Assembly (NCBI RefSeq): GCF_037042905.1
Contig: NC_087250.1
Location: 22,322,001-22,386,000, forward strand
Length of the DNA stretch: 64,000 bases
Reading direction: 5' to 3'
Source: Lytechinus pictus
Lineage: Eukaryota
The notes beneath the pieces were generated by a model, which saw nothing but the letters and a program-made list of their open reading frames with translations, did no database searches and was not told the origin of the DNA. Positions within the stretch are counted from its first letter, which is position 1, and each line of letters starts with the position of its first letter. The translations under genes were made by a program, and so were the position numbers. Of the stretch, positions 1 to 64,000 are shown one piece after another.

Positions 1-141
1 ACATTATAGTGTCAACTCTGTTTTTTTTTTTGGGGGGGGGATTTTCCGGAATTTCCTAGATTTATTCATTATCATGATTGCATGTTTAATTGAAGTAATT
101 TAACATAATCACATAATTACACGATTGGAATGATTAATTAC

Positions 142-358
142 CATGGCGTTCATTGATGGAGTCGCAGATTTCGTTATAGCGCCCTCTGTCATTGAGTAGT
201 TGGAATGCGTCGTTCCACCATTTGACCAAATCGGTGTTAGTATGTCGTGTCATAACTGACCCACCAGCAGCTCTGCAATTATTCTCGAAGTCCGGTGGTG
301 AGATGCGTTTCAATGAGGAGGTGAAAGCTCCAAGAACTTCACCAAACGCCACATCAAC
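142..358 (-). CDS. Gene A exon 7 (VDVAFGE...YNEICDSINERH)
   Basis: taag|GTT...G|gtaat; ORF 134-373. If this donor is not used, the frame ends at the stop at 134-136. Confidence 0.85.
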
Positions 359-3300
359 CTTACATGAAAACAAGGGGGAAAAACATGAACTAGCTAGAAG
401 AAACTATGGAAGAATTGTTTACATGATTTCCCCGATGATTTCGGCTGAATTATTTTCGATTGCCTCCTCGAAGATGGTATGGGATACAATAAAGCTATAC
501 TCCAGCCGCTGGTGTAGCGGTCGATACGGTGCTAGGCAGATACGGTTCTAGGAACACTATCTGCCGGCGGATCGGCAACTCCAGCGGATTCAGAACCAAT
601 TTCTCCGGCGGATATCGTTCTTGCTATCGTCTCTCGATCGGCATACACACGGTACAAATTTCCTTCAAATTTATATAGGACCTACCATATTTATTTATCT
701 ATTTTGATAGGAAAATGAATAATAAGAAAATCAAACCGCAGCAACCAGACAGATATGGATATATGGTTCCGAGGAAAGAACGATATCTGCCGGTGGAACC
801 AGATCTGCCGCTACACCGGCTCAATTTGTTTGGCAAGCTGTAGACTAAATTTGTCAACAATTCTTTTCCTCGAAATTTGGTATTGAGGTTTATGTTAGTA
901 AAACATCGAAACCTAGAACTGCCCTCGTTCCGATATTTTTTTGGTCAGCTGTTGCACCATCGGCACGAGAGTAAAGTGTCATCTAAACAGCACAGAGAGA
1001 GAGAGAGAGTGTGTGTTTGTGTGTTCGGCTGACCCGGGTCCAAAGGGTTGCCAACATGGCGCATGAGGTTTGTTAGGCAAGTCCCATTCAAAAGACAAAA
1101 CGCACCACTTTAGTAGCCCATTGAAACTGGGTTGGCCGAACTCTCTCGTTTGCCATTTATATACAGGGGGGTGAAACTCCGCTTCTGCATCCGGTTAGAC
1201 ATGGGGAAATTTTGGAAGGTCAAAAGTGCACACTGCTCCCATTTTTCGCGTACAAGCCTATGGACACCCCAATTTCATGGCACACCAGCGAAACGGAGGC
1301 GTGGTCATAATTGGCCTGCGCGCACAGCGTAAAGATATGCAAATAAGTATATTGTTACTAATTAGCATAATGCGCGACGTGATTGATTATGAAATGATTT
1401 CATAGAGTTGCGTCTTTGGTAATTAATAAGGTAGATTATGTCATTCATTCCCCGTTATTCAGTTGTTACTTCATCTTTCCTTGTTTACATATTTTCCTGT
1501 CGCGATTATTACTACATCAATTAATAAAATTATTTATTTGCTATAGCTATTTCCCTTGAAGAAATGTGGAAGCTTACAAGGAATTCATTAATAGGATTGA
1601 ACTTAGGGATCTGCTTGCTCGATCTATTCATACAGTCATCACTGCATTTTATTTTCATTACACATCATTAATAGCCATAATTGTTTATATGTTTGGTTTT
1701 TTTTTTAGGGGGGTAAATACTTAAAATGATCAGAGAAATCTTAGCAAGAGAGCAAAGCAATTTAGAAGGCCATTTTGTCTTTATTTTGAAATTGAAATGA
1801 ACAATCTGGTGCAAATCTTATAAAGATAAAAAAAAAAACAATTTCTGAGTTTGGGATGGGAGCAAAATTAAGACAGCCCAGTACCCCCCCCCCCCCTCCT
1901 CCCCCCGCATGAATTCACTCTCATCAAGGCTATCTTAAAAAGGTCACTTCCAAACAAGATAAAATTTTATTTGAACCTGCCCACCCCAAAATCTATCCAT
2001 CGATCCCACCCTTCCCCCCTCTCTTCCACACACACACATACATGTACCACATAATCATGCGAGCAAACAATTATTCTCATATCATTTTTATCCCACTCTT
2101 AAATCAAACTCATTTATCTCTTTAGGAAGAATATCTAATTTGGCTGCACCTGATCTTAAAATATCACAGTATGCCATATTTTTATGGGCTATCTTGCCAT
2201 GCATGCATGGTATTTTGATACTTTATGTTATACTCTTACCTGTTGTACTCGTATCATACCCATAGATACCTGACAAACAAAATCAATCAATCAGTAGCAC
2301 CATCATATTCCAGTCATATAGAAGTATTCTTCATTATCATCATTACCTACATCACAACACAGTTTGGTAGCAATAACATCATTATCACATATCTTTCACG
2401 CAATGTGAATAAATAAATCACGAATATCAAGATTAGAAAGTATATTTCAAATTAAAATATTTATTAAGGAATCAATTTCTGAATATGTGATCAAAATATT
2501 CCTGTCCTCTTTTTCTCGCCAAAGCATTACATTAATTTACATCAGCAAAATGCATATAATTAATGCAACAGAAATTGCAAGGCTGTTACAAGGGAGGGGA
2601 TGTTAATTTTTTTGGTAAAATCTTGAGAAAACAAATTAAAAAAAATCACTTTCATAGGTATTGATAAGCCTTATATAGTCAATATAAGGGGACATCAAGG
2701 ATGTCATTAAAAAAATTTACGATATACCTCTCTCTCAAAGTCGGTTACTCAAATATCAAGTAATTTTTTTTCAGCATTTGCTGACAAGAAATAGCATGCT
2801 AATCTAACCGAGAGCACCTCACAAAAAAGGGAGCACATTGCCACATTTCTCTCAAGAGTGCCTTCCCAAATCTGCACATTAGTAAATTAGTAACAAAATT
2901 GCTTATTGTCTATTGTTGTGAAGTGCTGCTAGAGCTGTGTTCTATTTCCAACAATTTTTTTTTCATTTTGAAGAGCTAATTTAATTCATAATACGGGACA
3001 TGAACAATACAGTGCTACAAGAACAAAAAGAGATTAAAAACGAACAAAACAGTGCAACTTTTCACTTCCCCCAAAAAATAAATTCAACAGCTTAATGTCC
3101 AGCACTACATATCCTTGTTTCATAAAGACGTCAATTATGGTAAATTTGCCCCAATTGTAACTAGCAACTAGCATGGGAACCTCAATGTTGATCTGTTACT
3201 TTAATGTTTCCATGGTAATTACCAGAATGGCAAAGAGTTAGAGTAATGAAATGGGGTCCAGGAGTGAGTGATTTCTTAATCCTTTGTTCTGTCACCTTGT

Positions 3301-6300
3301 TTTTTTTAGTATGCACATTTTCAATGAAAATCCATTATTTCTAATTGTCTTATGTATGTCTGTAGGCATGTACATAGCCCAGAACTCAATAAAGACCAAT
3401 TCTGAATTGATTATATTACCAGAATACAACTTATCCCTTTCAAACTACTTATATCATTAACAGTTCTTTCACTGCTACTACATGTAGATGATTAGAACAT
3501 TAATAAAGGGTGGGTAGGTGTGCCCTTTGGGAAAATATTTCAATCTTGTGTGAAACCTATGGACCTAAATATCAATACTCCAATTTTTTTTTCTACAGAT
3601 GTGTAGTTCAAGCAACATTCAATATGTATTGACATGTTTATTCAAATTCATTCAATTTTTAAAATGTGTAATTGTGATGAAGTAGCTACTTGTTATGAAC
3701 TTGGCCTCCATATTTCTTCTTATAATCTGCCCTGGTGATACTCAAACTGCCTGCGGAACCTGCATGGTAAACAAAAAAAAAGAAAAGAACAAAATGAGCT
3801 GCTGATATGAATTATTCTTACTCATCTAGTTCAGTTTATTAAGAAGTTTTAAACTTTTAATTAGGCCCTAATCTTCCATGCAATATTGTTTAGATAATGC
3901 ACATGTAGTAATCTATATAGCCAGATAAAAATCACGGATCACTATTTATAGAGCATTATTCATAGAACTTTTTTGATTAAGTGTGTAAACTCATTCAAAT
4001 ATATATCATAAAATTACTCTCAATATTTTGTCCTTTTTTATTTCTGTCTACAAAGTAAATGAGTTTTAAAGTGATATCACATATGACTCATGTAGATAAG
4101 ATAAGAGACATGGACAATAAGTATGTATTGATGAGAATGGAAATACTGGTGAATCTGAATCCAAATAGATATTTACTCACAATGGAGCTTTACTATATGG
4201 GATAACATGATCCAGAAAAAGTTGCTATAGCCCTCCCCCCCCCCCCAAATAAAAAAGAAATAGGAGGCCTTTTTTAACGAAAACAAGCATACCTTACAAG
4301 TTTTCAGTTCAAATATCCTGTTCCTCATCAGATTGTAACTCTTGGTGATGTGTAAATGGTAGTTGACTTTGTACTTCTGACTGGGCTGGGACTGCTAAGA
4401 ACTTGATCCCATTGGATCTGCAATTCAAAATACACACAATACAGTTTAGAATTTTAGAGGTGATCAACATAATTCCTCTTTTAAAACAATATTTTCAAAA
4501 TTTCCAGCTAGTCCTATCCTAAGCCTATGAATATTCCCAACTAGAAAAAAGCTGGTCTTGACCGAAAACTTCCTTCTCTCTGTATTATGTTCCACTGACG
4601 AAATAGGCATAGGCCTACCTGGCTGTTTCCACTGACCATCTTCATTGTCAATAAGACTAGAGTCAGTAAATGGTTCAAGCATATACGTGGCCTACTATAG
4701 CGAGGCCTTTTGTCAATCTTATACACCAAGCCAGCTTTGACAGATGTAGGATAATTATTATTTGTGTGATAATTTGGCTCTCGCTCATTCACCAGTGCAA
4801 GACAATTGGGTTTTTTTTATCGTCTAGATCTATAAACATGTGAATCTCTACATCTAAGTGAGTTCCTCTTTAAGTTTGATTTTGATTTTTAAAAAAAGTT
4901 AGCTTGCTCACAAGTTTAAATGACCCTTTGCCTTTCACCAGAAATATGGTCAAGTGAGGAGGACAATAAAGATAAATCAATTGGATCAGCCCTCTCTCTA
5001 CTTATACTTATAAAATTTAAAATGGGGCACTTTAAATTTTGTCACCCCTTCCCATAAAAATTGCACTCATGGTATACGATAACTGAGCAGTTTGAAACCT
5101 GACAAAGAAATGTTGTCCCCCAAAAATAAGAATCATTTAACTCCGTTATATGATTTTAGACTTTTTTAGTCCAACGGTCCAGGCAGGGACTAGAATAAAG
5201 TTAATTTAAATCTTCGTAGAAAAAGTCAAACCAGACAGATCTAGAATTTCATTTTTAGAAATCAAGATCTAAGTTAGACCTATCATAGGGCCTTACTTTT
5301 TAGTAAAAAAAGACTAATGTTAAAATCAGTCTCAAACCATTCCACCAGTGGGCATGCAGTGGCAAATCTACCGATATCAATATCATTCCAAATAGATTTT
5401 AGTTCATTTAAATAATTGATTTAAAATTAATTTCTTTTTAAATGCAGAGAATTATATTGATTCATATAAAGATGGAATAGCGGTGTCAAAAAATCAGTAG
5501 GCTCAGGCCCAACTTTAAACTTCAACTCAAGCTTGTCAGTGACATTAATTCCCAACACCTAATAACCTAGCCTACATCGCCATCGGCAATATCGCAGCCG
5601 GCTGGCACCGGCGGTATCAATGCCCATTTCCCGCTCTGACTATAATATTTAGCTTAGATTTAATGAAGCTTTGCCGTTACTGAACAAGTCCACATCTACC
5701 CCTGATATTTGACAATGTACTGAAATACAGATTTAATAAGGACGGACATGAAGCATTCTAATTAACCAACATAGTTCTACGAAAAACTATCATTTTCTGA
5801 GAAAATATGTCAGTCAGATCCGGAGTCAGATCTCAGTACCGGTAATGGAAATATGGAAATTGTGGTTTCCGTAGTAAACTACGCAAAGTACATAAGGCCC
5901 TGACTGCGACGCCGAACCCCAGCAGCAAACACATTACAATTAGGTTGAATTACAACCGAGATCAAAGCACGAAATTGAACTTAACTTACTTTTATTTGGA
6001 TGGAATGCCATTACTTTGATGTAGATGTTCCCTCATAATTTTCTGCTCAACTGAATTTCACTCAGAAATCCTGATTCCGGATACTAATTCTATAAACAGA
6101 TAATTAGTCTTGCTATTGTATTTCAAATGTTGAATTTCGCAGAGTAAAAAAGAACGACACTTCGCGCAGATATCGTAGGGAATTGTGGGAAGGAAAAAAA
6201 TGTTTAATGCATGAGGACATGAATAAAACATTAGCGTTTTATCCAATCATACAAGTGCATTATGCGTATTTTGACGTCATTACTCATGAATTAAACATTG

Positions 6301-9300
6301 ACCTTCCAAAATCAACCTTCAAATTGGCCAAATGGCAGCCATGTTTGTTATGTACAAAACCTATGGAAAATCAAAAACGCGCGAAAAGAGTTCCCTCTCT
6401 AGCTCCCTTCGGGAGCTTACGTATACGTAAGATCGTATCTCTGTGTTTATATATTATGACACTGCCCTCTTGCGTCGATAGCATAACAACTGACAATGGA
6501 TCTAAACGGTACCGCGCCAGGTACGAGACTAGAAAAAAACACTAAATACCTGAGATCACCAACGTTCAACGTTCAAATAAATTCGCCTCTGATTTTTGTG
6601 ATGCTGCCCTCAGAGTTTCAGCTTATAATCGGTAAAGGTCATCAAATTTTCAAGGATGGTCTGTATGCACGATGTAGACATCATTTTTTCCAACAAATTC
6701 CTCCCCCCCCCCCCTCTCAAAATTAGATGTATGCATTGGTCTAATCCCAACAACCTAGAAATTTTGATAATGCTCCCAAAGGAGTTCCGTCTTTTGCTTA
6801 ATTTTTTTTTTAATGTGCCCTTCCCTTCCAATTTATGATAAGTACCCTGTTAGAAAATATATCCTTAAAATTAAAGAAGTTCCTGCAGCAGAGTCTCGAG
6901 AACACCTGTAATCTTACCAAATTGCGTAATCTTACAGGAAATTGGTATTTGGTGTATGGAACCTTACAAATTTCCTTAAATAAAACAGCCTTTTCCCCTT
7001 TTTAAACAGACCTTTTCTGTTAAATTGCAGAAAAATTCCTGTTTTATGAATTTACAGAATGATTATGTTATTGCTTTCTGCAAAATCTTCTGTTTTTTCT
7101 GTAAAATCAGGGTTTTTTTTAACAGTGCAGTCGATTTTGCCCCCTCTATATACTTACCACATCATTTTGTACTGCGGCTGCTAGGAGATCAGCAGTCTCA
7201 AAATAAAATACCTGATCGGGACGAAGTGTGGAACCCTGCATGAGAGATGGAATAAAGAAGGACACTTAGCTTAATATGCAGATAAAAGGAGGATATAGAA
7301 AAGGTGAAATTGTGACAGGCAAGAGCTGCAGAAGGAAATATAAGTTTTTGGGGCTGCACATGCATAAAAACACATTTAATGGCATTTTGTAGACGGTTAA
7401 TAAAACAAAAGAGGTATGGGCTGTCAAACTCCAGCCGCATTTGAAAGGGCCCGGGGTAGGATCGAAGACCTAAAAAGTAAAACGTTGGTTACTTTTCTGC
7501 TGAGAAATTGATATGAATTCCCTTATGTGTGTATGTGTGTGTGTGTTAGGGTGTGTGTGGGTGTGTGTGTGAATGGTAGGGGCGCGCGAGAGAGGGTGTG
7601 CGAGTGAGGGATGTGTGTGAGGGGGTGTAAGTGTGTGTGAGAGGGAGCAAGCGAATGGGTTAGCATAAAGAATACACAATGAGTCAATTTAATTGCACAA
7701 GGTATAGTGACAATAATAATGATTACACTGATACTAATGATCAGAAGGTTTCTATAACATAGGCCTACAGAATATTGCTACATTATCTTTCATTTATGTG
7801 TTACCATGACTCCAGTGGAGGGGGTGGTTTTTAACAGCTTACCACCAACCCCCCCCCCCCCCATGTCCACATTTATCTCGCCAAATCGACATCATAACGT
7901 TATTTCAACTTGGCAACACATGTCATCTCGTCAAGTCGACACACAAAAGGTAAATGTTAACTTGGCGAGATATTTTGTCGAGTCGACAAGCAACAGAGTA
8001 CATGTATATGTCGAATTGACAAAATACGTTATGTCGACAAGTCGACATGGTGATATTACTATGTATACTTGGCGAGATACATTATCTCGCCAATTTGACA
8101 TAAAAACGGGTGTAGGTCAACTTGGCGAGATACAGTTTGTATATACGTCGTCTACGCGAAATTGTGTATCTCGCCAAGTCGACATAATAACATCATAATG
8201 ACGACTTGGCGCGATATCTTGTCTCGCTCAGTTGAAACACTCCGGTATTTCGACTTGGCGAGATAACGTGTCTGGCCAAGTTGACATACACTTTTTCGTA
8301 TGTCGACTTGGCGAGATAAGATGTGATGAATTATTTTCCCCATCTCTACACGTCGATGACACTTTAAAGCTTCCGTACAGTCAGGTTTGTATTTACCATA
8401 ATGTTTGTGTAGCGGGCGAGACAGAATTCGTCCGAGTTCCACCCATCTATAAATCCAACTTTCTGATTGGTCAAATCGTCATACGTCACGAAGCTGTCAT
8501 TTTTCACAAAGAGGCCAACAGTACCTCCTTTGGTATATGGCGCGGAGAATGTGAAGGTCAGAAGACGATCATACGTTTGAACCCATTCTAAAGCAAAATA
8601 AGGTTTAACCGGCGGCGTAAATGAGATAACAATTTTGAGGGGACCAGGGGGTGTTTCACAAAGATTTAAGTACATGTATGACTTACTGCGTTCGGTATAA
8701 AAGCCATGACCGCATTGGTCAGACCATGCCACGAGGATGCGCACTGCTGTGTATTGATTAATAAGATTGCGCGTTGCATATCTTGCTTACGCGTCAGCAT
8801 TTAAGTGCGACACTTAAGTCATACTTAAATCTTTGTGAAACACCCCCCAGATATGACATAATGATGCAAAAAAAATTGAAATAAAAAAGGCTACAACTGA
8901 TATATTTTTCATATATAAATATATCTTGTGATAAATTTTGAGATACCATATTTCTTTTTCATATCTGTCAACAAGGCAAAGCCGGCAAACAAACTCCCTC
9001 TCAGGGGTCGTAAAACGGGTTTAAAAGTGGGGGTGTGGGGATGGGAGCTGGCCATGGAAAGAAAATCACATTCAGTTGGTCATTTGTACGTTTTTGTACA
9101 CGGTTTTGGAAAGCAGGGGGCTGGATGAGAAGCTTCCCCCTCCTGTTCCGCGGTCCCTGCCTGCCTTTATTCTTAGTTTTACTATTATATCCTGAGTATC
9201 ACAAAAAATAAATGCACATGAACTGTTTGTAACAAGTATGTAGCGTTCAGTAGAAGTGGTGACGAGGATATTATTCGAATTGTAGTTCCTAAAGGAATTA

Positions 9301-12300
9301 CGGTGGGTCCAATTTTATTCCTTATCATGGATGGCAATTAACGTCTCAAAGACAAATCGTATTATAATTGCGACCTATGGACCTATAGGAACTACAGTAA
9401 GAATCGTACCTTTGTCACCACTTTTACTGAGAATAACATTTTGTTTGTTATACTTTAAAACTCAATTTATGTTTTATATGTTACCCAGAGTATGCTAAAC
9501 ATAAATACAGTTTATTTGTTGAAGAAAGTAACTTTGGCAAAATAAAGAAAACAAGAAGAACTAAAAAATCAACATTTGGGGGCGCTAGGCTTATAAGCCA
9601 ATATGCTTCCTGCACTACGAGTGCAAAGTTGGATCCCCGGTCAAAATGTGCAAGTCTAAAAACAGAATGTTCCCATCGATTATGTTAATTAGTAACATTT
9701 TTTCTTGTTCGTTACATTATCAAAGACGATCGTGTTATCAATAATGAAATATCTATCATTATCATCACCATCATCAACCAAAGTAAATCAAAGAATTGTC
9801 AATTAAAATCATATTCTTAGCTTTGGCCAAAGGCGATTGGGTTTATTGTTGAAATAGTTTGAACCAGAAGTGTACTGGGTCGATAATTTTGAGGGGGGTC
9901 TTTCATGGCTTCTGGGGCAACATTTCTAGTAAGCTGCTATACGAGCGACAATTTTGACCTCTTAAAAGATATTCATTACAAAAGTCTGATTTTCTGGTAG
10001 ACTTATGTCATATAAAGAAAATGATACCATACCTAGACAGCCATCGTACCATCCACTCATGATGCCCTTGCCGCCCCTGGGGCGCTCACCAGCCTTGCTG
10101 TCCCAACAGTTCGCGGAGATGTCATACACCGTTACGCAATTCTTGTTCGCTATCTCGCACACTGAAAATTACAATTAACAAGCAATTCGAGAAAACAATA
10201 TAGATCATTGGGCAGTGTTGGGGTTTGAATAGAATTGCAATGAATATTTTGAAGATTTCCTTTAAAAGTCAATAAAAGACAAAATTACATGTAATTTTTG
10301 GATTAATAGTAATGTGAATTATGTTCATGGCCAGTGGCGTATCTAGCGGGGAAAGGGGGCACATACCCCTGGCGCCTCTTTCAGGGGGCACAAAAAGGGG
10401 GAAGGGTGCACAAATAAAGAAAATAAAATTAAAAAATGAAGAGAAAACGCAAAGTAATAAAGGCACAGAAAAGGAATACCACGGAAGGTGATTAATACCC
10501 TGTCCTGTTCTATTACCATGGTAATGCAGTTTAGAAAATGAATCTTGTATGTCTTTACCCAGGGATGAATATTCGTGCCAACTATTGATAAGTGATATCC
10601 ATATTCTCTTCAAGAATTCCAACAAAACTCCTTTGAAAGAATCCTTTTTCAAATACATATTTTTCTGGTTCAATTGTCAAAACTTTTTATCACACGCTGA
10701 TTTGATAAGGGATATAAAAATTATGTTCATTAATTTTACAACCATGACCCTTTTTAGATGAGGATATATATATAAATCAGCTCAGTCGCGCTTCGGCTCG
10801 CATTACGCCAGTGAGATACGTATCCTTTTCATGAATTCCTACAAATAGTCCTTGAAATTTTCCCTTTTCAGGTAAGTATATCAAATATTTCAGCTTATAT
10901 ATCCTGCTTGCATTAATTGCTTAGTTAGATACGCATCGTGAAATTACTTCTCCCTAAAAATGTCTCGATTGCAGGTCAGAATATCAATAATTTTCAGCTC
11001 GCGCTTCGCACTCGCATTAATTGTCCAGATATGTATCATGTTAGTAATTACAGACAGTGCTTAGAATATTCATTCTTATAGATCTTAATAAAAAAAATAT
11101 ATGCTCTCGCTTAGCCCTTGTATTAGGTCTGTTTATTTACTGAGATACCTATCGTCTCTTTCCTAAAAAGTGTCTTTTTACATGTTCCTTTTTCAGGTCT
11201 GATATCAGTAATTAATTCATCATTCATTGCATACGTACCCATCATGTTCATGATTAAAAAAACATCTTAGAATATTCCGTCTTTTGACGTCATAATTTGG
11301 AAAAATATTCACATCCGCATACATACATACATACATTACATACACATAATGCACTTTGAAAGGGGTGTAATTTTAGCGCTTGCCCTGGACGCCGTTTAAA
11401 TTAGATACGCCACTGTTCATGACTCTTTGCTTAAAGGGCATTTTAAGAAACTAAAGTTCAATTTGTAGGTCAAATATCATGCACAAGTTCTTTATTAAAC
11501 GTTAACTCGTAGTTGATTTGCGTTTTAATGCAAATAAACTTTCTTGCAAAACAAAATAAGTTTCTTGTGCTGCCCTTTCACGCTTTTGATTTTCACAAAA
11601 GAGAACATGGAGTTATATATTCGAGCATATTAAATCAATGCTTCACTTCGTTTGCGTGTGGCAACTAAGCGTTTCAAAAATCTGCACACATTCATGCATG
11701 GCCCTGCATAGGTGCTTATAAGATTCAAAGTAGATTTACCGCCCTTTCACACGGTCAAAAATGTTGTAATTTGAATAATGATTCCAGTGAAAAAAAAGGC
11801 CAATAACGAATTTCTAGCACGAGTGAAACCAAACTAGAACATGATTAAAATCACGAACGCTAATCACAATCACGAATTCAAATTCTACTCCGGATGTGTA
11901 TTCATGTGAACGGCTTGACCTCCAAAACATCTTTTGGGGGAGGAGCTTACATGACCTTTCAAGCACTTCCATAGATAATACAATTGTCATGCACTCATCG
12001 TAGTTTGTATTTGCGATGCAGTGCTTTGATTGGCAAGTCACCAAGGACACATACCGCCTTCGCTCGGGAATTCGAATTCAAATCACAGTTTTCGAGTGAG
12101 CGTGTGAAAGGTCCGATGATTCTAAAGACGAATTGCAATCATCATGAGAATGATGATTCACGTGTAAAAAGGCCCTTAATTGAAATCAACTCTATTTCAA
12201 TGCAATTGCATGAACACTAAACACAACAAAGGCATTGTGTATTTGTGATGAATGCCGTCTGGGGTTCCAAGGCTGCTGGCATAATGAGGAATAAAGAAGA

Positions 12301-12870
12301 TTAGATAATTGCTGCAAGGCCCTCCGGGATTTTTCTTGACATATAATTCCACATTCATCACTTCTAGTTTTACTGCCCTCGCTTTTGGGGGCGGGGGGCA
12401 TTTGAATACTGTATTTCGGGGAGGGGTTTTTATTCAGAATTTTATATTAAATATTAGTGGAAATCAATAGCTAATCATTCGACTGATTTTGTATTCGATT
12501 TTCTCACCAGCCTCAACGATATCTGGAGTGAATCCCCTGATTGTGTGTGTTGTCTTATCCCTGTAAACATAGAAACAAAAATAGATAATTATACATATAA
12601 AATATAGACTATGAATATCATTATCATCATGAATCTCATCATTCACGACATACACTTTATTACAAAGACATCACGGTACAAATCGCTCACCGATGAAACT
12701 TAAAAAAAAAATGCATAATATTCCTTTATTCAAGATAATATGGTTCGAACAATGTGGATTAAGTAATAGTAATAGTAGTAGAAGTATTAGTAGGGAGTAG
12801 AAAAAGAAGAAGAAAAAGTAGTAGTAGTAGTAGAAGTAATTTCAATAGTAGCAGTAGTAGTTAATGTACT

Positions 12871-12905
<35 letters not shown>

Positions 12906-12911
12906 TGTACT

Positions 12912-12972
<61 letters not shown>

Positions 12973-12985
12973 AAGTAGTTGTACT

Positions 12986-13041
<56 letters not shown>

Positions 13042-16000
13042 TGTAGTAGTTGTTGTTGTAATACAATATTTTGGTACCGGCGCGGCGTGGCTGCGCAGCG
13101 CATTCACCGCCAAGGATATTGAAAGTAAATAGGCCTAAAATGAAAATGAACGAATGTTTTCCCCCTTCTTTCCATCCTCAGTTAAACACACACGCTCCCA
13201 CCCCCGCCCCACACACCAGACTCACCTCAATAGGCATCCACAAACTTACACAGACACACTAATTAAAAACCGGTACAGAACACGACTCAGCACAGCGTTT
13301 TGTGCCCCCCCCCCCCCCCCCTGGTTGTCTGGAAAATGTGCGTCAACTTGACTTCCGTCCATCAAAATAATAATTGATGCAGGATTTTTTTTTTATAGCG
13401 CACGTATCCACCGTGCTAGGTGCTCAAGGTGTTCCTGTATTACCCCGGCTTAGCTAGTCTACCGATTCCGGTGCGCACAGTTTTTCAACCCACCCTTTCG
13501 AGAAAAGCTCATCCAGTTTTTCACGAAGGGGTGTGGCCACCCCCGCTTAATCCCCGCTCCGCGAACGCAGACGATCGTCACCAGCCGTATAACCATCATG
13601 CACTTCCACCAACTTCTCAAGCAAAGCGTGTGGCGTTCGGCGTTGCGATCGCGAAAACTTCCTAGATCTTAACATATATTTTAAGCTACTTCACAGACGC
13701 TTTCTGCAACGTTCAGAATCTATTTGAAATGCCCGTCAAATCACAATGGACAGATTAGAGGTCTTTGAAGAAAGTTGGTGGACTGGTCCAGCACATCGTC
13801 TTAAGTTACTGGTTAAAAATTGTCGTTTTTCCAGACAACACTGCAGTTTTGATTCACCGATTTTCGACAAAGACTGTTTTGTTATGAAGGTCTTTTGACA
13901 ATATAATCTCTATATTCCCCTCTTGTCACCTGACCATAAACGTTTCATTCTAACCAGGGGCGCCCGTAACACAATACTTAGCAATGATCGTAGAACATTT
14001 TTCTACGATTGATTCCATTGACTAGAATGTACAATCAATCGTACAAATCAAACGTACGATCAATCGCTAACCTTTGTGTTACGAGACCCAGTTTATACCA
14101 AATGGCAAGTCAGCGTTGACTGTCCACGCAACACCCATCCAACAAACCATCTACCAACATAGAGATCACCTTCATAATCACCATCATAATCATCATTATT
14201 TTTTATTTACCACTCGTGGGATGGACACCCTATCAGCAAATTTTTGGGTTGTTAATTTTTTTCGTAGGGTCCATCATCACCACCAACAACAACAAAAATA
14301 CATCATCACCATCTATCACCATTTGTACAATCATCATCGTAATCATTACAAATATAGTCATAATCATCTTAATTTCGAGGATCGCAGGAACACCATTGCT
14401 GTCGTTCTCATAACTATCCTCATCATCTCAAAGAACAATCATAATACATAATCGAAACAACCATCGATTGTCTGCAAAGAAATACATATAAATTTCATTC
14501 AGTTTCGTCAATGTTGAGCAATCAATTTTCTACATAACTATTGTATGATTTTGTGAATTTATATTGGTTATAAAAGGTCATTTTTTGTTACTGAATATAT
14601 CTACTGTATATGAATATGTTAATACTATGACATTTTGTACGATTATTTGTATTATGGATAATTATTTGTCTTTTGTGAACAGTATTTTGTTAATATTTAT
14701 CACCATCACTTTCATTTTGAACTGAATGGTTAATAAATATTATTACAAAACAAAACAAAATTAAGAAGACCCCATTCCGGGTCAAATTCAGACTTACAGA
14801 TATGCTCTTTTGTCATCATAATGACTAATGGCGAACATCCAAATTTTATCATCATCATCATCGCTGCTTCCTAATGCATGAAGTAAAGTGGATTTTGAAA
14901 TATTATTTTTATCTACATGTAGTTATTAGGGCTGTTACGTTTGAACCTAATTTGGCATTTTTGAAAACAGCATAGGTAAAGCTTATGAAATATCCCCGAT
15001 TTGAGTAGGATGAAAAGAGTATTATACAACGTTTATGCCATGTATAATTTTAACTTTCAAGCGAACAAATACTCATACCAACAACCTAACACACATCCTC
15101 CCATATAAATCCACATTCAACTAACCCTGTTACAATGGTTGAAGACCTTTGGCCAGTTGTTTAAAACCGGCTTTGTACCTAATAAACTTATGACTGAAAT
15201 CACCACTTTCCCAAACTGTACTTCTAATAAGTTTTATATAATTACCTACTCATCTAATAAGTCCATGTAAATCGTTACTTTAAATAGACATGGTATAAAC
15301 ACTATACAATCACATGAAAATATCAAATCTCCACCCAAAATGTCAAATTCTAATCCAAATACTGACAAGAAGCTAAAGTTACTAGCATTTTAATGCAGTC
15401 GTTATTAATTTTAAGTCCAGACATTTTTCCAAAGTCTCCAAATAGCACTTTTAGTCCAACAACTGATTTTACATTGAGAGCATAAACTGTCGTATCATAC
15501 ATGATCATCTGCATAAAGTGCTAACTTTCTTTCCTTATATCCAAATCTAATTTCTCCTATCAAATGATTCGTTATTTATGAACCATTACTTCAATACACA
15601 AGATAAAAATATAATGACTGAGAGGGTGCCCTTGTCATACCCTTGTCTTGAATGTGAAAATCCGTTACTTTTTTACTTAGTAATACCTCTTTTTTATAGA
15701 AAGAATGTTAACCTAGCAATATAAAGGGCATCACTGACATTCACACTAAATAGTCAGGTTTTTCTGTTTCTGTTATTAAACTCCCGTTAGGAACTCCCCA
15801 GTATAGCTTTCTGTTGGTTGTACACCGTTAACTGCTGGTACACTATAAAAACTGTGGTGTTAAAACTGACACCAGTGGGTTTTAATAGAGGACCACACCC
15901 TCTGGTGTTAAAATTACACCCTAGAGATTGAATATAACACCAAAGAGTGAACATGTAACAACCAAGGGTGTTGCAATAACACCTATAGGTGCTATACTAA

Positions 16001-16682
16001 CACTGTCAATCTAACACCGGTGTAAAATAACTGGTGTGGTCCTCTAAGTACACCGGTTAACACCGCAGTTTTTGCTGTGTATATATCAAATTACACAGGG
16101 GGCATTTTCATGCCTCAGTTAATCAGGCATCGTGGCTGACCTTAAAGACGATAGAACTTATACTCTTGGCTATTTGTTTTATCAAAGTGAAGACAATTGC
16201 AGTGCAGAACTCACAACCTAACCATCTTGAGTCCGATACTCTTACCACTACACCACACAACCCACACTGCAAAAACTCCGGTGTTGATTTAACACCAGCC
16301 CGGAATCTATATAATATATTTCCACACCAGAGAAGTGTTAAACAACACCAGTTATGTTTTGGTCCATACTCACCAATTAGTATTAAAACAGCATCGGTTT
16401 GATTCCAAACTGGTGTTGTTTCAATACTTCTCTGATGTGGATATATATAGATTCCGGGCTGGTGTTAAATCAACACCGGAGTTTTTGCAGTGCACCGCCC
16501 GAATTGGACCCACCTGTTGATGGCTGTGTATAGATGTTAATCGACTGTGGATCGTTGGTAGACTCTCTTTGCGTGCCTTGAAGGGAAGTGATGCTGATGA
16601 TACCAAGAACCAAGGCTGCGATGCTCACCACACCCAAACAGCAGACCAAACTTCCAATCAAAACAAACCTGTCCTGAGCCAT
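142..16682 (-). CDS. Multi-exon gene A (3' end runs off window): membrane-anchored protein with bacterial-type solute-binding protein family 3 (PBP2) ectodomain; exons 16682-16514, 14870-14798, 12560-12508, 10161-10033, 8587-8397, 7235-7158, 358-142
   Basis: Seven GT-AG exons join in frame (intron phases 1,2,1,1,0,0,1; 910 nt). Product: MAQDRFVLIGSLVCCLGVVSIAALVLGIISI (TM)...GFTPDIVEAVCEIANKNC...DRLLTFTFSAPY...DDLTNQKVGF...AVQNDVVDVAF...DLVKWWNDAFQLLNDRGRYNEIC. These motifs are colinear with those of HisJ/ArtJ/GlnH-type proteins. Confidence 0.85.
3620..6350 (-). ncRNA. Putative small spliced transcript (lncRNA or micropeptide) nested in gene A intron 6; candidate exons ending at 5990, 4417-4293, and 3759 to about 3620
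   Basis: Donor AA|gtaagt at 5990; internal exon gcag|...AAG|gtatg; strong pyrimidine tract plus cag at 3760; AATAAA at 3642-3637; upstream CpG-rich promoter-like region. Only very short ORFs. Confidence 0.45.
6150..6560. promoter_or_regulatory. CpG-enriched promoter-like region with CCAAT (6243), CRE TGACGTCA (6272-6279), YY1-like AACATGGCTGCC (minus, about 6335-6346) and a CTCF-like motif (about 6463-6475)
   Basis: Motifs read directly; local CpG excess over the AT-rich background. Confidence 0.45.
7158..7235 (-). CDS. Gene A exon 6 (GSTLRPDQVFYFETADLLAAAVQNDV)
   Basis: gcag|GGT...GTG|gtaag; 78 nt, phase 0-0. Confidence 0.82.
7863..8320. repeat. Array of alternating direct and inverted TATCTCGCCAAGTCGACAT units
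   Basis: More than 10 copies in both orientations. Confidence 0.75.
8397..8587 (-). CDS. Gene A exon 5 (WVQTYDRLLTFTFSAPY...FCLARYTNIM)
   Basis: tttag|AA...ATG|gtaaa; ORF 8364-8744. Confidence 0.88.
8647..8847. mobile_element. Palindromic MITE (GGGGGTGTTTCACAAAG TIR)
   Basis: About 30-bp TIR. Confidence 0.7.
10033..10161 (-). CDS. Gene A exon 4 (VCEIANKNC...GWYDGCL)
   Basis: ttttcag|TG...G|gtatg; ORF 9962-10162. Confidence 0.88.
10332..11415. mobile_element. hAT-like non-autonomous element
   Basis: TIR CAGTGGCGTATCTA / TAGATACGCCACTG; 8-bp TSD TTCATGGC/TTCATGAC. Confidence 0.8.
12508..12560 (-). CDS. Gene A exon 3 (DKTTHTIRGFTPDIVEA)
   Basis: cag|G...G|gtgag; GFxxDI motif typical of family-3 binding proteins. 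Confidence 0.85.
12764..13060. repeat. (AGT)n microsatellite
   Basis: Read directly. Confidence 0.95.
14798..14870 (-). CDS. Gene A exon 2 (GSSDDDDDKIWMFAISHYDDKRAY)
   Basis: tag|GA...CT|gtaag, 73 nt, bridges phase 1 to phase 2 exactly; absent from the ORF track. Confidence 0.8.
14900..15720 (-). mobile_element. Old degenerate L1/Tx1-like RT fragment
   Basis: Remnant G.*QGHPLS (about 15620-15640) followed by LYADD (about 15503-15517) on the minus strand. Confidence 0.55.
15841..16078. mobile_element. Related CAC-ended palindromic MITE
   Basis: CACTATAAAAACTGTGGTGTTAA / TTAACACCGCAGTTTTTGCTGTG; internal inverted GAGGACCACACC. Confidence 0.6.
16090..16262 (-). mobile_element. Degenerate tRNA-derived SINE
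   Basis: Minus-strand head GTGGTGTAGTGGTAAGAG..GGACTC..GAGTTC (A/B-box-like). Confidence 0.5.
16265..16492. mobile_element. CACTG-ended (CMC/EnSpm-like) MITE
   Basis: About 47-bp perfect TIR CACTGCAAAAACTCCGGTGTTG...; 2-bp CA flanks. Confidence 0.8.
16514..16682 (-). CDS. Gene A exon 1 (start Met, N-terminal TM/signal anchor, S/T-rich stalk)
   Basis: ATG at 16682, hydrophobic segment, donor ACAG|gtggg. Confidence 0.8.
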
Positions 16683-19288
16683 AGTGATGGGTTACAATCA
16701 CCTAATTACTTAATTTTCTACAATTCGATCAGAATACTAAGGTTGATGAGTCTCGATCGAATCCCAAAGTAGGAATGAAACGAGATGACTCTTCACTCGG
16801 GTCCCAATCATAAAATGACTACATGCGAGGTTATAGGCCTACTATAAGGATCAGCGGTTTTCTCCTTCTCTCTTTATATCTTTCTCTCTCACTCAAACGC
16901 AGCCACACCCATACCCCCTCAAGGTCACATATTCTCCTCCTTCTATCCGTAAATACTCGTAAATTCTTTTGATTTGTGTTTAAATTGTACTGATAACTTT
17001 TCATTTCCTGATCAATAGCTTCATAAGAATGGTCTATTACAACAAGTAATCATTTCGACGCGAAGGACGCGAGACCTTCGGTTACATAATCGTCCCCAAA
17101 AAATGAATGATACAGACATTTATTTTCAACTTTAGCACACATGCAAAATTTTCCAATAACACATAGGAGTTGTTTTTTCCAGTTTCAAAAGACATTTGCT
17201 GCCGTCTCACTAACGACTCAGACACCAGGCCGATAAAAGCTACTTTATTATTTTTTGAATGGCATATCATCGAATGGTGCCGAGTTGGTTGAATAGGTGT
17301 GACTTACCATTGGTATTCAGGAGTCTCATGAGCATCTCCACACTGCCAAAGAAAGACCAGTCTAATTGTATTTAATTTTTCAAACTCTCAAAAGTGGTTC
17401 GTCCATTCTGTCTCGCCTGAAAGAAGTTTGGCAGACTCGAACCTCGTGATCATTTCTCCTGTGTAGTCATTATTAACAAAATTGAAAAGGGTTTGTTTAA
17501 TAGAGCGAAATGATAAGTACCTTTTTTTGGCCTTTTGAGTTAATCTCAACACATAAGCCCCCCCCCCCCAAAAAAAAAAAGAACCTTATCAAAAGCGGAC
17601 GGTAAAAAATAAATGAAAGAACAAAAATGAAAATACTATGCATATATACTCGCATGTAAGCGGTGACGTTGTATGATAATTCACCAGTAACCGGGGACGC
17701 AAGGGTGTACACAGATTTTGGGTCAGTTTAACTCCATCAACTTTCGTTCATCAAACACTTGAAATACTACAACACGGGCGCCATCCAAATTTTCGGAAAT
17801 CGCCCTAATGGTGAATGTAAGTTCACGCAGACACACACACTCACACACACACCCTCCCACCCTCACACACCCTACACACACTCTCACACACAGATGGGTT
17901 TATGGTTTATTCAAATCTACGTTGTCACATGTAATTCCATGCGAGCCAAAAACACACACACGCATCCTCACCCTCACAAGCCGACACACACTCACACCGT
18001 ATACATGGTATAGGTGAAATTATCAATGTTGACAAAAAGGCTGGTCGGGTAATATAACGGGTGTCCGAATAAAATAAAGATTGTTAGGGGTTCCTTTTTT
18101 TCAATTCTCTCTCTCTTTATTATCTTATAACATGATATGGGTTGGAAAATTCAGGATAGAATCCTGGTCTGTATCTTTCTAACATCCAATTTTAAGAATC
18201 AAGCTTAAAAACATTTTATTGTCCGTATTATAATTCATAAAAACATTGGCGTGCGTCCGTGATTTTATAATCAGCTGAGCGGTATTAATGGCGCGTGGGC
18301 TTATTAGCTAATATGGCCCGAACAAGGTAAATTAATTAAAATATAGATTACCTGGCAGAAGTTGAAAAAGAAATTAAGTACAGTATGCGTGTGTGGTTGT
18401 AGACATTTATGTTCTGGGGTCCGTTGCAGAAAAAGTTGCGTTTAAACGCAAGTCAAAAAATCAATCGCAAGTCCCAAACGCACGCTGTTGAAAATCAAGT
18501 TTCGCATGGTTTTTAGAGTTGCGATTGATTGCAACTTTTTCTACAACGAGCCCCTGGGCAATGACTGCAAAATCCAGGTATTAGGAAGAGTGTATTTAGT
18601 AAACCATTTTAATAAAAAAAAGGGGGTGCGTTTGAGCAGAACAAGTTCAAACTACATTACAAAGAAAGGTAGGTTTATAATCTCTTTAGTATAAAATAGT
18701 ATTATGTACATTCGGCAATATTCTAGTTACATGCTGTCAATGTACTTCATCATCTTAATAATCACAATCATAGATACTTACACATTCTGCGTCCATGTAC
18801 ACCTCCGTAAATATTGTTTTTCTTCATGTTTGAATTTATTCATAATCTTTAAGGAGAATTTAACGTTATGTGCTGCTCTTTTTTTTATTCGGTGCATATA
18901 ATAAAGTCCTTGTTGGTTAAACACCTCTTTTGTATTGCACTAAAGAGATTACACCTTTCATTGTAATGTCGTTAGGACAGGTTCTGCTCAAGTGCACCTT
19001 TTTTTTACTAAACTGGTTTTGAAATACGCACTATGCTTGTAACTAAGATTTAACGGTCATTACACAGACCGTATAGGCTCACTCATCCTGTGTATAAACA
19101 TACCAGAGAGTACTTCCTGAACATACTGTTTTACAGAAATTTAGCTTCGACTTCTGCCAGGTAATTTTCATTTTGAATCGTTTACATTCCATTATGATTT
19201 TACACTTGAACCTGTTTTTTTTTTGTTACGCTACTTCCGTCTTTTCGATTGTCATGTGAGAATTTATTTATTTTTGGTTAAAATTTCA

Positions 19289-20635: not shown

Positions 20636-63117
<42,482 letters not shown>

Positions 63118-64000
63118 GTAAGAAGTGTGAAGGAGCACCACTAGAACAGTCACAAGCGAAACTGAGTCCAGACTATCCAAGTTATTTACAGGGATGCCAC
63201 TTTTCTGTTTTTACACAGAATTCCGGGTCCCCCCCCCCCCCCGTCATCTATCTTATTTCTTTTTTTTTCCCACGTTTGCCGTTTTCTATGTATCAGAAAA
63301 AAGTCGGAATATTCCGCCTTTCTCCTCCCCTCTATTTCTCATTTTCATGTCCGATCACAGAGAGATACTGGTACACAGTTGTACATGTGTAGGTCACAGT
63401 TTTGGGCTCATTGCACTTGTTTGACCGAGGGAACCATCTTTAAAATAGCTATGACTGTAGCATAAAGGGAGACTCTCCAATGTGGTCAGTTGCTCAGGGA
63501 GTGTGCTCTCGGACCCCTGTGCTTTGAACAAGTGTTGATTTTTTTTTCTGTAAAAATTATTGAAGATGAATTGCCAAGTTTAGTTTAAATAGCTAGGGCC
63601 ATTCAGTACCTATTGGCATCTATCTATGATTTGAATTTTATAAGAACTAAGTTTAAAATGTAAATACAATTTGTATTATGTCACAGGACAACATGATGAA
63701 AGTGTGTAATGGGGTCCTTTGAAATCAAACAAACAGTCATGCTTAACCAATCAAAACGGGTATTTCAGACTTTTTCAATTTCTTTGGGTTGGGTTTTAAT
63801 TTGCAGCACTTTTATGTATTAGGGCCCCCAAAATGTTATGTTATTTGCACACTAAAGAAAGGGAAGTGTATTCCTTTAGGGCTTAAATCCAATAAGGAAT
63901 TCACCCTTGAGTGACAAAGTTTTTTAGTCTTTGTTCTGCAATGTTTTATTTTTTTCTTGTTTCCTTGATTTTGTACTTTAATCGTGCAATACTTCTTGTA

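Follow-up and report, generated by a model that had tools for sequence, protein, structure and literature searches.

An intron-containing sea urchin gene encodes a channel-free, bacterial-type binding domain on a probable single-helix membrane tether

In animals, the type II periplasmic-binding-protein (Venus-flytrap) fold is known almost exclusively as the ligand-binding core of glutamate receptor channels. In the excerpts available of a sponge genome preprint, the Pfam family SBP_bac_3 appears only as a label inside sponge glutamate-receptor-like proteins (10.1101/120998). Outside animals, a study on Entamoeba histolytica describes EhVFT, a stand-alone surface flytrap of the periplasmic-binding-protein superfamily that has no signalling transmembrane domain and for which downstream partners have been proposed (PMC12965686). 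Here we describe a gene of the sea urchin Lytechinus pictus in which this fold stands alone, lies closer to bacterial transport binders than to receptor cores, is probably held by a one-helix tether and lacks any part of its own for signalling or transport. The gene lies at one end of a window of 64,000 nucleotides, the whole stretch of DNA that was analysed (C6:22322001-22386000 in a genome assembly of 811.7 Mb and 368 contigs), and belongs to a family found at no fewer than 12 places in this genome and in at least five marine invertebrate phyla. It is expressed and has eight exons, and we consider it probable (roughly 0.6) that its 318-residue product is a membrane-tethered, flytrap-type binder of an amino-acid-like molecule, which either needs a partner or simply holds its ligand.

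The gene model and its Pfam label are already present in public annotation. A literature search, whose scope was open papers without their supplements, returned no paper on the family, and the database names say only 'uncharacterized' or '...-binding protein-like'. What is added here is the recognition that a family 3 binding domain of bacterial type occurs in an animal, in a predicted single-pass, channel-free and probably disulfide-rich architecture, and a conjecture about its function.

Gene structure and splicing

The gene is encoded on the minus strand, and its seven in-window exons span positions 16682 down to 142. Exon limits were read by hand from the sequence, guided by a tblastn search with the closest database protein, P0001 ('uncharacterized protein LOC129262819 [Lytechinus pictus]' in nr, 319 residues), which we treat as the ortholog. 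P0001 is 97% identical over exon 5 and matched all seven in-window exons, as seven collinear pieces placed between 16682 and 137. Every in-window intron is of the GT..AG type and the phases are consistent. The start ATG lies at 16682, with an in-frame stop 12 nt (four codons) upstream, and exons 1 to 7 total 910 nt, that is, 303 codons and one base.

The last exon was located in the 10 kb below the window, where the HIPSGDY pattern has one exact match. Its acceptor consists of a polypyrimidine tract and AG, followed by ..GT CAT ATT CCC AGT GGC GAT TAC CAA GAC TTC TGC ATC GGA TAC TAG. Joined to the leftover G of exon 7, exon 8 reads GHIPSGDYQDFCIGY and then stop, adding 15 residues with an eighth conserved Cys and bringing the protein to 318 residues; the difference from the 319 residues of P0001 is due to a shorter acidic run in exon 2. 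Intron 7, which crosses the window edge, is 1,819 nt long. The exon 7 donor at 142 was placed from the ortholog and exon 8, and this position is therefore a probable one; reads do not cover it because the X1 contig (see below) ends at 165. The features of the gene are as follows (positions within the window, except for exon 8).

16683..16845, minus strand: 5' untranslated part of exon 1, minimum extent; X15 contig unbroken from 16513 to 16845
16514..16682, minus strand: exon 1, coding part, 169 nt, Met1 to the first base of Gly57; five-residue N-terminal tail, hydrophobic helix of residues 5-32 (about 16587..16670) and start of the stalk; placed by sequence, tblastn and joint 14869>16513 (cut +1) in X1 and X15
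14798..14870, minus strand: exon 2, 73 nt; acidic stalk and predicted first beta strand (GSSDDDDDKIWMFAISHYDDKRAYL); joints 12559>14797 and 14869>16513
12508..12560, minus strand: exon 3, 53 nt; DKTTHTIRGFTPDIVEA; joints 10161>12508 and 12559>14797
10033..10161, minus strand: exon 4, 129 nt, VCEIANKNC...WYDGCL; four conserved Cys and about 11 inserted residues that bacterial binding proteins lack (gap against 6h30 and 2y7i); joints 8587>10033 and 10161>12508
8397..8587, minus strand: exon 5, 191 nt, EWVQTYDRLLTFTFSAPY...GFIDGWNSDEFCLARYTNIM; Arg150 and the hinge; joints 7234>8396 and 8587>10033
7158..7235, minus strand: exon 6, 78 nt; GSTLRPDQVFYFETADLLAAAVQNDV; joints 356>7156 (X1 only) and 7234>8396
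142..358, minus strand: exon 7, 217 nt, VDVAFGE...ERH and the first base of a Gly; Glu at the position of the amino-group-binding Asp, Cys260 and Cys297 (P0001 numbering); joint 356>7156
G000:C6:22320276-22320322, minus strand, outside the window: exon 8; GHIPSGDYQDFCIGY and stop

Transcript evidence came from public sequencing runs found by a search with exon 5, four of which (X1, X15, X19 and X20, all under one species label) were mapped on window positions 1-17000. A single X1 contig (877 nt, depth 68.7) joins all six in-window junctions, at 356>7156, 7234>8396, 8587>10033, 10161>12508, 12559>14797 and 14869>16513; with cut offsets of +1 or +2, these are exactly the six in-window introns, CT..AC on the plus strand being GT..AG on the minus strand. 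An X15 contig (857 nt, depth 2) carries five of the six junctions and continues unbroken to 16845, so that the 5' untranslated region measures at least 163 nt, and in X19 one raw RNA read crosses 10161>12508. The exon 5 search listed no RNA run. Runs X1 to X4 and X15 are only guessed to be RNA; X1 and X15 cannot be pure mRNA, as both also contain intron sequence. A spliced form, which genomic DNA alone would not yield, exists in two studies all the same. Transcription of the gene and its splicing at the six in-window junctions are thus confirmed.

Two kinds of read accumulation were seen in the same mapping. Within introns, the stretches 8506..9072, 13609..14175 and 15877..16443 reach contig depths in the thousands in X1 and X15, with many loose ends at 8815 and 8848, and are likely to be high-copy repeats. 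At the short poly-C/poly-G tracts 1883..1906 and 13304..13321, RNA reads pile up by the hundreds; their loose ends are homopolymers, and 'opposite strand' joints link the two tracts. Homopolymer mis-mapping seems a better explanation of this pattern than a transcript.

A first-pass annotation, made from the letters of the window, had proposed an intron-containing animal gene of seven exons and about 303 residues with seven Cys. The spliced contigs of X1 and X15 bear out the intron-containing animal gene, and all the sequence motifs quoted there occur in the window translation. The counts hold for the window, which does contain seven exons, 303 codons and seven real ectodomain Cys, but not for the whole gene, which has eight exons, 318 residues and, with exon 8, eight conserved ectodomain Cys.

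Domain family, fold and architecture

P0001 passes the threshold of Pfam family PF00497 (SBP_bac_3) with 31.3 bits against a cut-off of 26.4 (E = 2e-07), and the same family is matched by all 66 aligned family members at E ≤ 0.01. Translations of single exons from the window, which are too short, matched no relevant Pfam family, and exon pieces alone gave only a weak match among solved structures (4zef, E = 0.0019). With the single complete protein the best match among solved bacterial structures was again 4zef, a GlnPQ-type domain, at 1.3e-06 and only 31 bits. A profile of the 66 family sequences matched 85 chains of solved structures at E ≤ 0.001, and the 60 best are without exception bacterial binding proteins or proteins that incorporate or derive from such a domain; the matches include the GlnPQ substrate-binding domain (6h30, 9e-28), STM4351 (3e-21), an ancestral Gln/Arg binder, ArtJ, HisJ, LAO, nopaline binders and cyclohexadienyl dehydratase. 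A protein-atlas look-up likewise returned bacterial amino-acid ATP-binding cassette (ABC) binding proteins, with feature scores of 0.95-0.96.

An AlphaFold2 model of P0001, built with the 66-sequence family alignment, has a mean predicted local distance difference test score of 90.3 and a predicted template-modelling score of 0.78. It consists of a helix at residues 5-32, a low-confidence segment at 33-60 and an alpha/beta domain at 61-319. Foldseek retrieved at least 500 matches at E ≤ 0.001, led by LAO, NocT, ArgBP, GlnP and HisJ, and the top matches LAO, HisJ and ArtJ reached template-modelling scores of 0.71-0.77 on the target. VIA-align, an independent structural comparison against 48,161 chains, also placed LAO first, at Z 21.8 with a root-mean-square deviation of 3.1 over 223 aligned residues; its best rows are ligand-bound closed forms. 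Its Z scores were the following.

LAO: 21.8
Histidine-kinase sensor domain (3h7m): 21.6
ArtJ: 20.6
Prokaryotic GluR0 core: 19.6
RmcA: 18.6; BvgS VFT2: 18.2
Rotifer AvGluR1: 18.1
Drosophila GluRIIB: 17.5
Plant GLR3.4: 17.4
GluR6: 16.5

Overall, the ligand-binding cores of ionotropic glutamate receptors (iGluRs) score Z 16.2-19.6, which is 2-5 Z units below the bacterial binders. In the model, then, the domain consists of two alpha/beta lobes linked by a two-strand hinge, that is, the type II periplasmic-binding-protein fold, and bacterial binders resemble the protein more closely than receptor cores do.

Ahead of this domain, the N-terminus comprises a five-residue tail (MAQDR) and a hydrophobic run of about 26 residues, then an acidic, disordered stalk some 30 residues long. 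Echinoids, the brittle star Amphiura, starfish and the brachiopod Lingula all retain the hydrophobic run. In Pfam, P0001 and its relative P0002 match SBP_bac_3 only, besides a weak resemblance of the membrane helix to DUF4190 that stays under the cut-off. Judging from sequence and model, the hydrophobic helix is most likely an uncleaved signal anchor of a single-pass membrane protein with the domain outside; the eight conserved Cys of the C-terminal domain fit such an extracellular location.

Searches for channel parts were negative. Pfam finds no Lig_chan (PF00060) in P0001, P0002 or 13 long relatives, and Lig_chan-Glu_bd (PF10613) is not matched by P0001 and is matched by only two of the 66 family members (best E = 2.3e-4). 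The stop in exon 8, 15 codons after exon 7, closes the frame, and no channel helices follow. The 13 long relatives, of 383-865 residues, contain no channel, permease or seven-helix domain in Pfam at E ≤ 0.001; 12 of them match SBP_bac_3 at this threshold, some two or three times in tandem and one (P0150) with a score under the Pfam cut-off, while of the 13 one is without a match and one has an additional borderline NMT1 match. The arrays of two or three SBP_bac_3 domains, seen in P0022, P0039, P0056 and P0137, are reminiscent of the tandem domains of GlnPQ.

These results agree with what the first-pass annotation had proposed for the protein: an N-terminal hydrophobic anchor, a stalk and a continuous SBP_bac_3/type II domain (recovered by Pfam, AlphaFold2, Foldseek and VIA-align), a likeness to bacterial family 3 binding proteins of the HisJ/ArtJ type (recovered by profile and fold searches) and a channel-free architecture (from the end of the frame in exon 8 and the Lig_chan searches). 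It had also named three points on which it might fail. On these, profile and structure searches returned the type II fold, reads supported the junctions and the downstream exon encodes no channel helices. Its further proposals, a cell-surface sensor or scavenger function and possibly an ancient horizontal transfer, are conjectural.

Conserved residues, relatives and origin

Arg150, within '..R...F.F..PY', aligns with the Arg of the bacterial motif '...T..R...F(S/T).PY' (2y7i, 4zef and 6h30). It is at least 90% conserved in the 66 sequences and present in 11 of 12 diverse animals in an alignment read by eye. Glu239, which follows 'VDVAF', aligns with the Asp of the bacterial 'VDA...D' in the same three structures; by the same reading, 10 of the 12 animals have an acidic residue at this position or the next. 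In LAO and HisJ, the Arg and the acidic residue hold the carboxylate and the ammonium group, respectively, of the bound amino acid. Structures of the LAO mutants R77A and D161A are among the Foldseek matches, and their titles at least show that these are studied binding-site residues.

Eight Cys, including the one encoded by exon 8, are invariant in the 12 diverse animals, which represent five phyla. Together, the seven window-encoded ectodomain Cys and that of exon 8 would suffice for four disulfides, and disulfide bonding among them is probable. Cys101 and Cys108 align with two Cys of STM4351. The family is further distinguished by the insertion of about 11 residues in lobe 1 ('CWD..G.RPRGG.G') and by a C-terminal extension, 'HGH.PG....C' ('HGHIPG...C'). 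Eight echinoderm sequences agree without exception in Arg150, the eight Cys and about 50 further positions of the ectodomain.

A HMMER search over 1.84 billion cluster representatives returned 253 proteins at E ≤ 0.001, 148 at E ≤ 1e-10 and 51 at E ≤ 1e-30. For a domain family with an enormous bacterial membership, 253 is very few, so ordinary bacterial binders lie beyond the reach of a single-sequence search. Of these matches, 30 were looked up by name; 13 are unnamed short contigs and all 17 named ones come from animals. The latter are echinoderms (the sea urchins Lytechinus pictus and L. variegatus, the brittle star Amphiura, the starfish Acanthaster and Asterias), hemichordates (Saccoglossus, Ptychodera and Glandiceps) and spiralians (the brachiopod Lingula, the abalone Haliotis and the annelids Owenia and Lamellibrachia). 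Uncharacterised homologues in marine invertebrates had been anticipated in the first-pass annotation. A Strongylocentrotus relative was also found, and those unnamed relatives that were aligned have the same invariant Cys pattern. A further profile search, in which 8,000 candidates were scored, yielded three more echinoderm or hemichordate proteins and no new phyla.

The type of tether varies within the family: echinoderms and Lingula have the helix anchor, and Saccoglossus and Glandiceps have a short leader only. In individual proteins, abalone P0126 begins with a signal-peptide-like segment and ends in a hydrophobic tail that may be a glycosylphosphatidylinositol (GPI) signal, Saccoglossus P0052 has a short leader followed by an acidic region, and starfish P0016 and P0040 carry 60-100 residues ahead of the membrane helix.

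In the L. pictus genome there are 44 exon-level matches at 12 places, counted by exon-5-like pieces and including the present gene. Paralogue places lie on contigs C21 (about 16.08 Mb), C9 (2.22-2.32 Mb), C4 (9.56-9.69, 12.74 and 13.69 Mb) and C3 (8.46, 40.50 and 55.38 Mb); among them are a tandem cluster on C9 and, on C4, an apparent segmental duplication of about 80 kb, with paired matches of equal or near-equal score. The exon breaks of paralogues that share only 40-50% identity fall at the same residues (about 99, 142-146, 204-209, 227-233 and 306), which means that the introns predate the duplications. Given these old introns and the presence of the family in both deuterostomes and spiralians, a recent or sea-urchin-specific horizontal transfer appears unlikely. 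The family could go back either to an older bacterial entry into an early animal or to vertical descent from the stock that also gave the receptor cores.

The only neighbour identified in the window is a large multi-exon gene of repeated MAM domains on the plus strand (23488..63392), which continues beyond the right-hand edge of the window; all six of its open reading frame pieces that were tested matched Pfam MAM, with 28-67 bits. Gene adjacency is not informative in animals. A triplet-type low-complexity repeat of about 2 kb (24833..27021), reading poly-Val/Leu/Thr/Ser in all frames and with a GC skew of 0.4-0.5, sits between MAM exons and is therefore probably intronic. Another low-complexity tract, at 20793..21253, reads poly-His/Asp/Met/Ile depending on the frame. 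On the minus strand, 36023..40550 holds a decayed non-long-terminal-repeat retrotransposon with several broken frames (zf-RVT 33 bits; RVT_1 22.5 bits, below the cut-off).

Possible function and comparison with known systems

If the protein is a tethered binder, its extracellular two-lobed domain would close on a small molecule with an alpha-amino-acid-like head group, Arg150 binding the carboxylate and Glu239 the ammonium group. As there is almost no cytoplasmic part, the protein alone should neither signal nor transport. The loaded domain might therefore act on a partner membrane protein, either a transporter or a receptor, or simply hold its ligand at the cell surface.

Several observations weigh against this interpretation. 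We know of no binding-protein-dependent transporter in animals. The RNA runs X19 and X20, which are rRNA-depleted and carry the same species label, contain next to no exon reads in the approximately 6% of each run that was read. P0001 matches none of the NCBIfam bacterial amino-acid-binder models considered (ArtJ, ArtI, HisJ, ArgT, GlnH and TIGR01096), and four of five animal proteins match TIGR01096 at 18.8-65.1 bits, far below its cut-off of 256. The hemichordate relatives carry only short leaders. In four of the seven closest paralogues or orthologs Glu239 is replaced by Ser or Thr, and Amphiura P0009 is gapped at this position. Finally, the bacterial 'G-T' turn that caps the carboxylate is replaced by a family-specific 'GF.DGW..DE.CLAR' motif ('DGWxxDExCLAR'), so that the pocket may take a different ligand.

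Among the alternatives, the one that survives best, although we regard it as unlikely, is that the N-terminal stretch is cleaved as a signal peptide and the protein is secreted, acting as a soluble carrier, scavenger or decoy at the larval surface or in the coelomic fluid. An analogy would be the soluble acetylcholine-binding protein of molluscs. The Saccoglossus and Glandiceps relatives do without a long hydrophobic helix, and the disordered stalk could allow the domain to be shed. However, a hydrophobic run of about 26 residues exceeds the core of a typical signal peptide, it is conserved from echinoids, Amphiura and starfish to Lingula and forms one long helix in the model, and the 60-100 residues that precede it in starfish do not fit a cleaved N-terminal signal.

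Less probable still is that the gene is a duplicated, fast-evolving member of the 12-locus family on its way to losing its function, and that its product, with the fold retained but no small molecule bound, has a structural or adhesive role at the cell surface. The urchin branch is indeed the one most diverged from the bacterial models (no NCBIfam match for P0001, compared with 65 bits for abalone P0126), the Glu239 position varies among paralogues and expression is near zero in two RNA runs. On the other hand, no break interrupts the reading frame through the eight exons, whose splice sites are canonical, the spliced transcript reaches a depth of 68.7 in X1, and Arg150, the eight Cys and the other ectodomain positions mentioned above do not vary among the echinoderm sequences.

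That the fold has been recruited as a surface enzyme, comparable to cyclohexadienyl dehydratase (PheC) or to the module of MltF-type lytic transglycosylases, seems very doubtful. Dehydratases and their reconstructed ancestors do occur among the profile matches (5jos, 1.9e-11; 5kkw, 8.4e-09) and dehydratases among the fold matches (8cq4, Z 16.7; 8pnj, Z 17.1), but in both searches they rank well below amino-acid binders, the Arg/acid pair of the latter is kept and Pfam detects no second catalytic domain. Bacterial contamination, or a very recent bacterial insertion misread as an animal gene, to which the exclusively bacterial best structural and profile matches might point, is refuted by splicing and genomic context: spliced contigs confirm six of the gene's seven spliceosomal introns, and the gene lies on a 28.5-Mb contig beside the multi-exon MAM-domain gene and retrotransposon remnants, shares its exon limits with paralogues among the 12 places and has only animals among its 17 named relatives, and the single protein reaches only 31 bits with its best solved bacterial match.

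One tentative and rather speculative extension is that soft-bodied marine invertebrates of the groups named above keep a family of such binders, tethered or secreted, which capture dissolved free amino acids, or related metabolites of seawater or microbes, at very low concentration and hand them to a secondary transporter or present them to a receptor. Animals would then possess their own form of binding-protein-dependent uptake or sensing. That such invertebrates take up dissolved amino acids across the body surface has long been known, and larval settlement is known to respond to amino-acid or amine cues, on which capture of this kind could bear. If amino acids are bound, the family would offer a concrete molecular entry point to the sensing or capture of dissolved amino acids in these animals, as well as a useful outgroup for the origin of glutamate receptors. 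It could also be a surviving relative of the free-standing binding protein whose fusion to a channel produced the first of these receptors. If nothing is bound, it would merely be an orphan surface protein.

The closest known proteins are the bacterial polar-amino-acid binders (LAO/ArgT, HisJ, ArtJ, STM4351 and GlnH), which have the same fold (Z 20.6-21.8, root-mean-square deviation of about 3 Å over 213-223 residues) and profile E-values of 3e-21 to about 1e-13, and whose carboxylate Arg and acid after 'VDA' are kept in the urchin protein. In contrast to them, the urchin gene has seven introns, and its product carries an N-terminal membrane helix where they have a periplasmic signal or lipobox, as well as eight conserved Cys, the lobe 1 insertion, the DGWxxDExCLAR motif and the C-terminal extension. 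To our knowledge, animals have no ABC permease that could serve as its partner. The domains SBD1 and SBD2 of GlnPQ from Gram-positive bacteria, which give the best match both to the profile (6h30) and to the single sequence (4zef), are held at the membrane surface, as the urchin domain probably is. They are, however, fused to the permease that takes their ligand, whereas the urchin protein would have only five cytoplasmic residues and matches no permease in Pfam.

The iGluR cores (GluR0, AvGluR1, GluRIIB, GluK2, N-methyl-D-aspartate receptor subunits and GLR3.4) belong to the same fold class, but they are split by channel helices, while the urchin domain is continuous and lacks Lig_chan. The bacterial sensor domains of BvgS (VFT2), 3h7m and RmcA are close in fold and are membrane-tethered flytraps that serve sensing rather than transport; these are joined to kinase or cyclic-di-GMP modules, in contrast to the urchin protein, which has no cytoplasmic module. 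EhVFT of the protist Entamoeba is reported to resemble the ligand domains of class C G-protein-coupled receptors and to be GPI-anchored, whereas the urchin protein combines an SBP_bac_3 fold with a probable helix anchor in an animal (PMC12965686).

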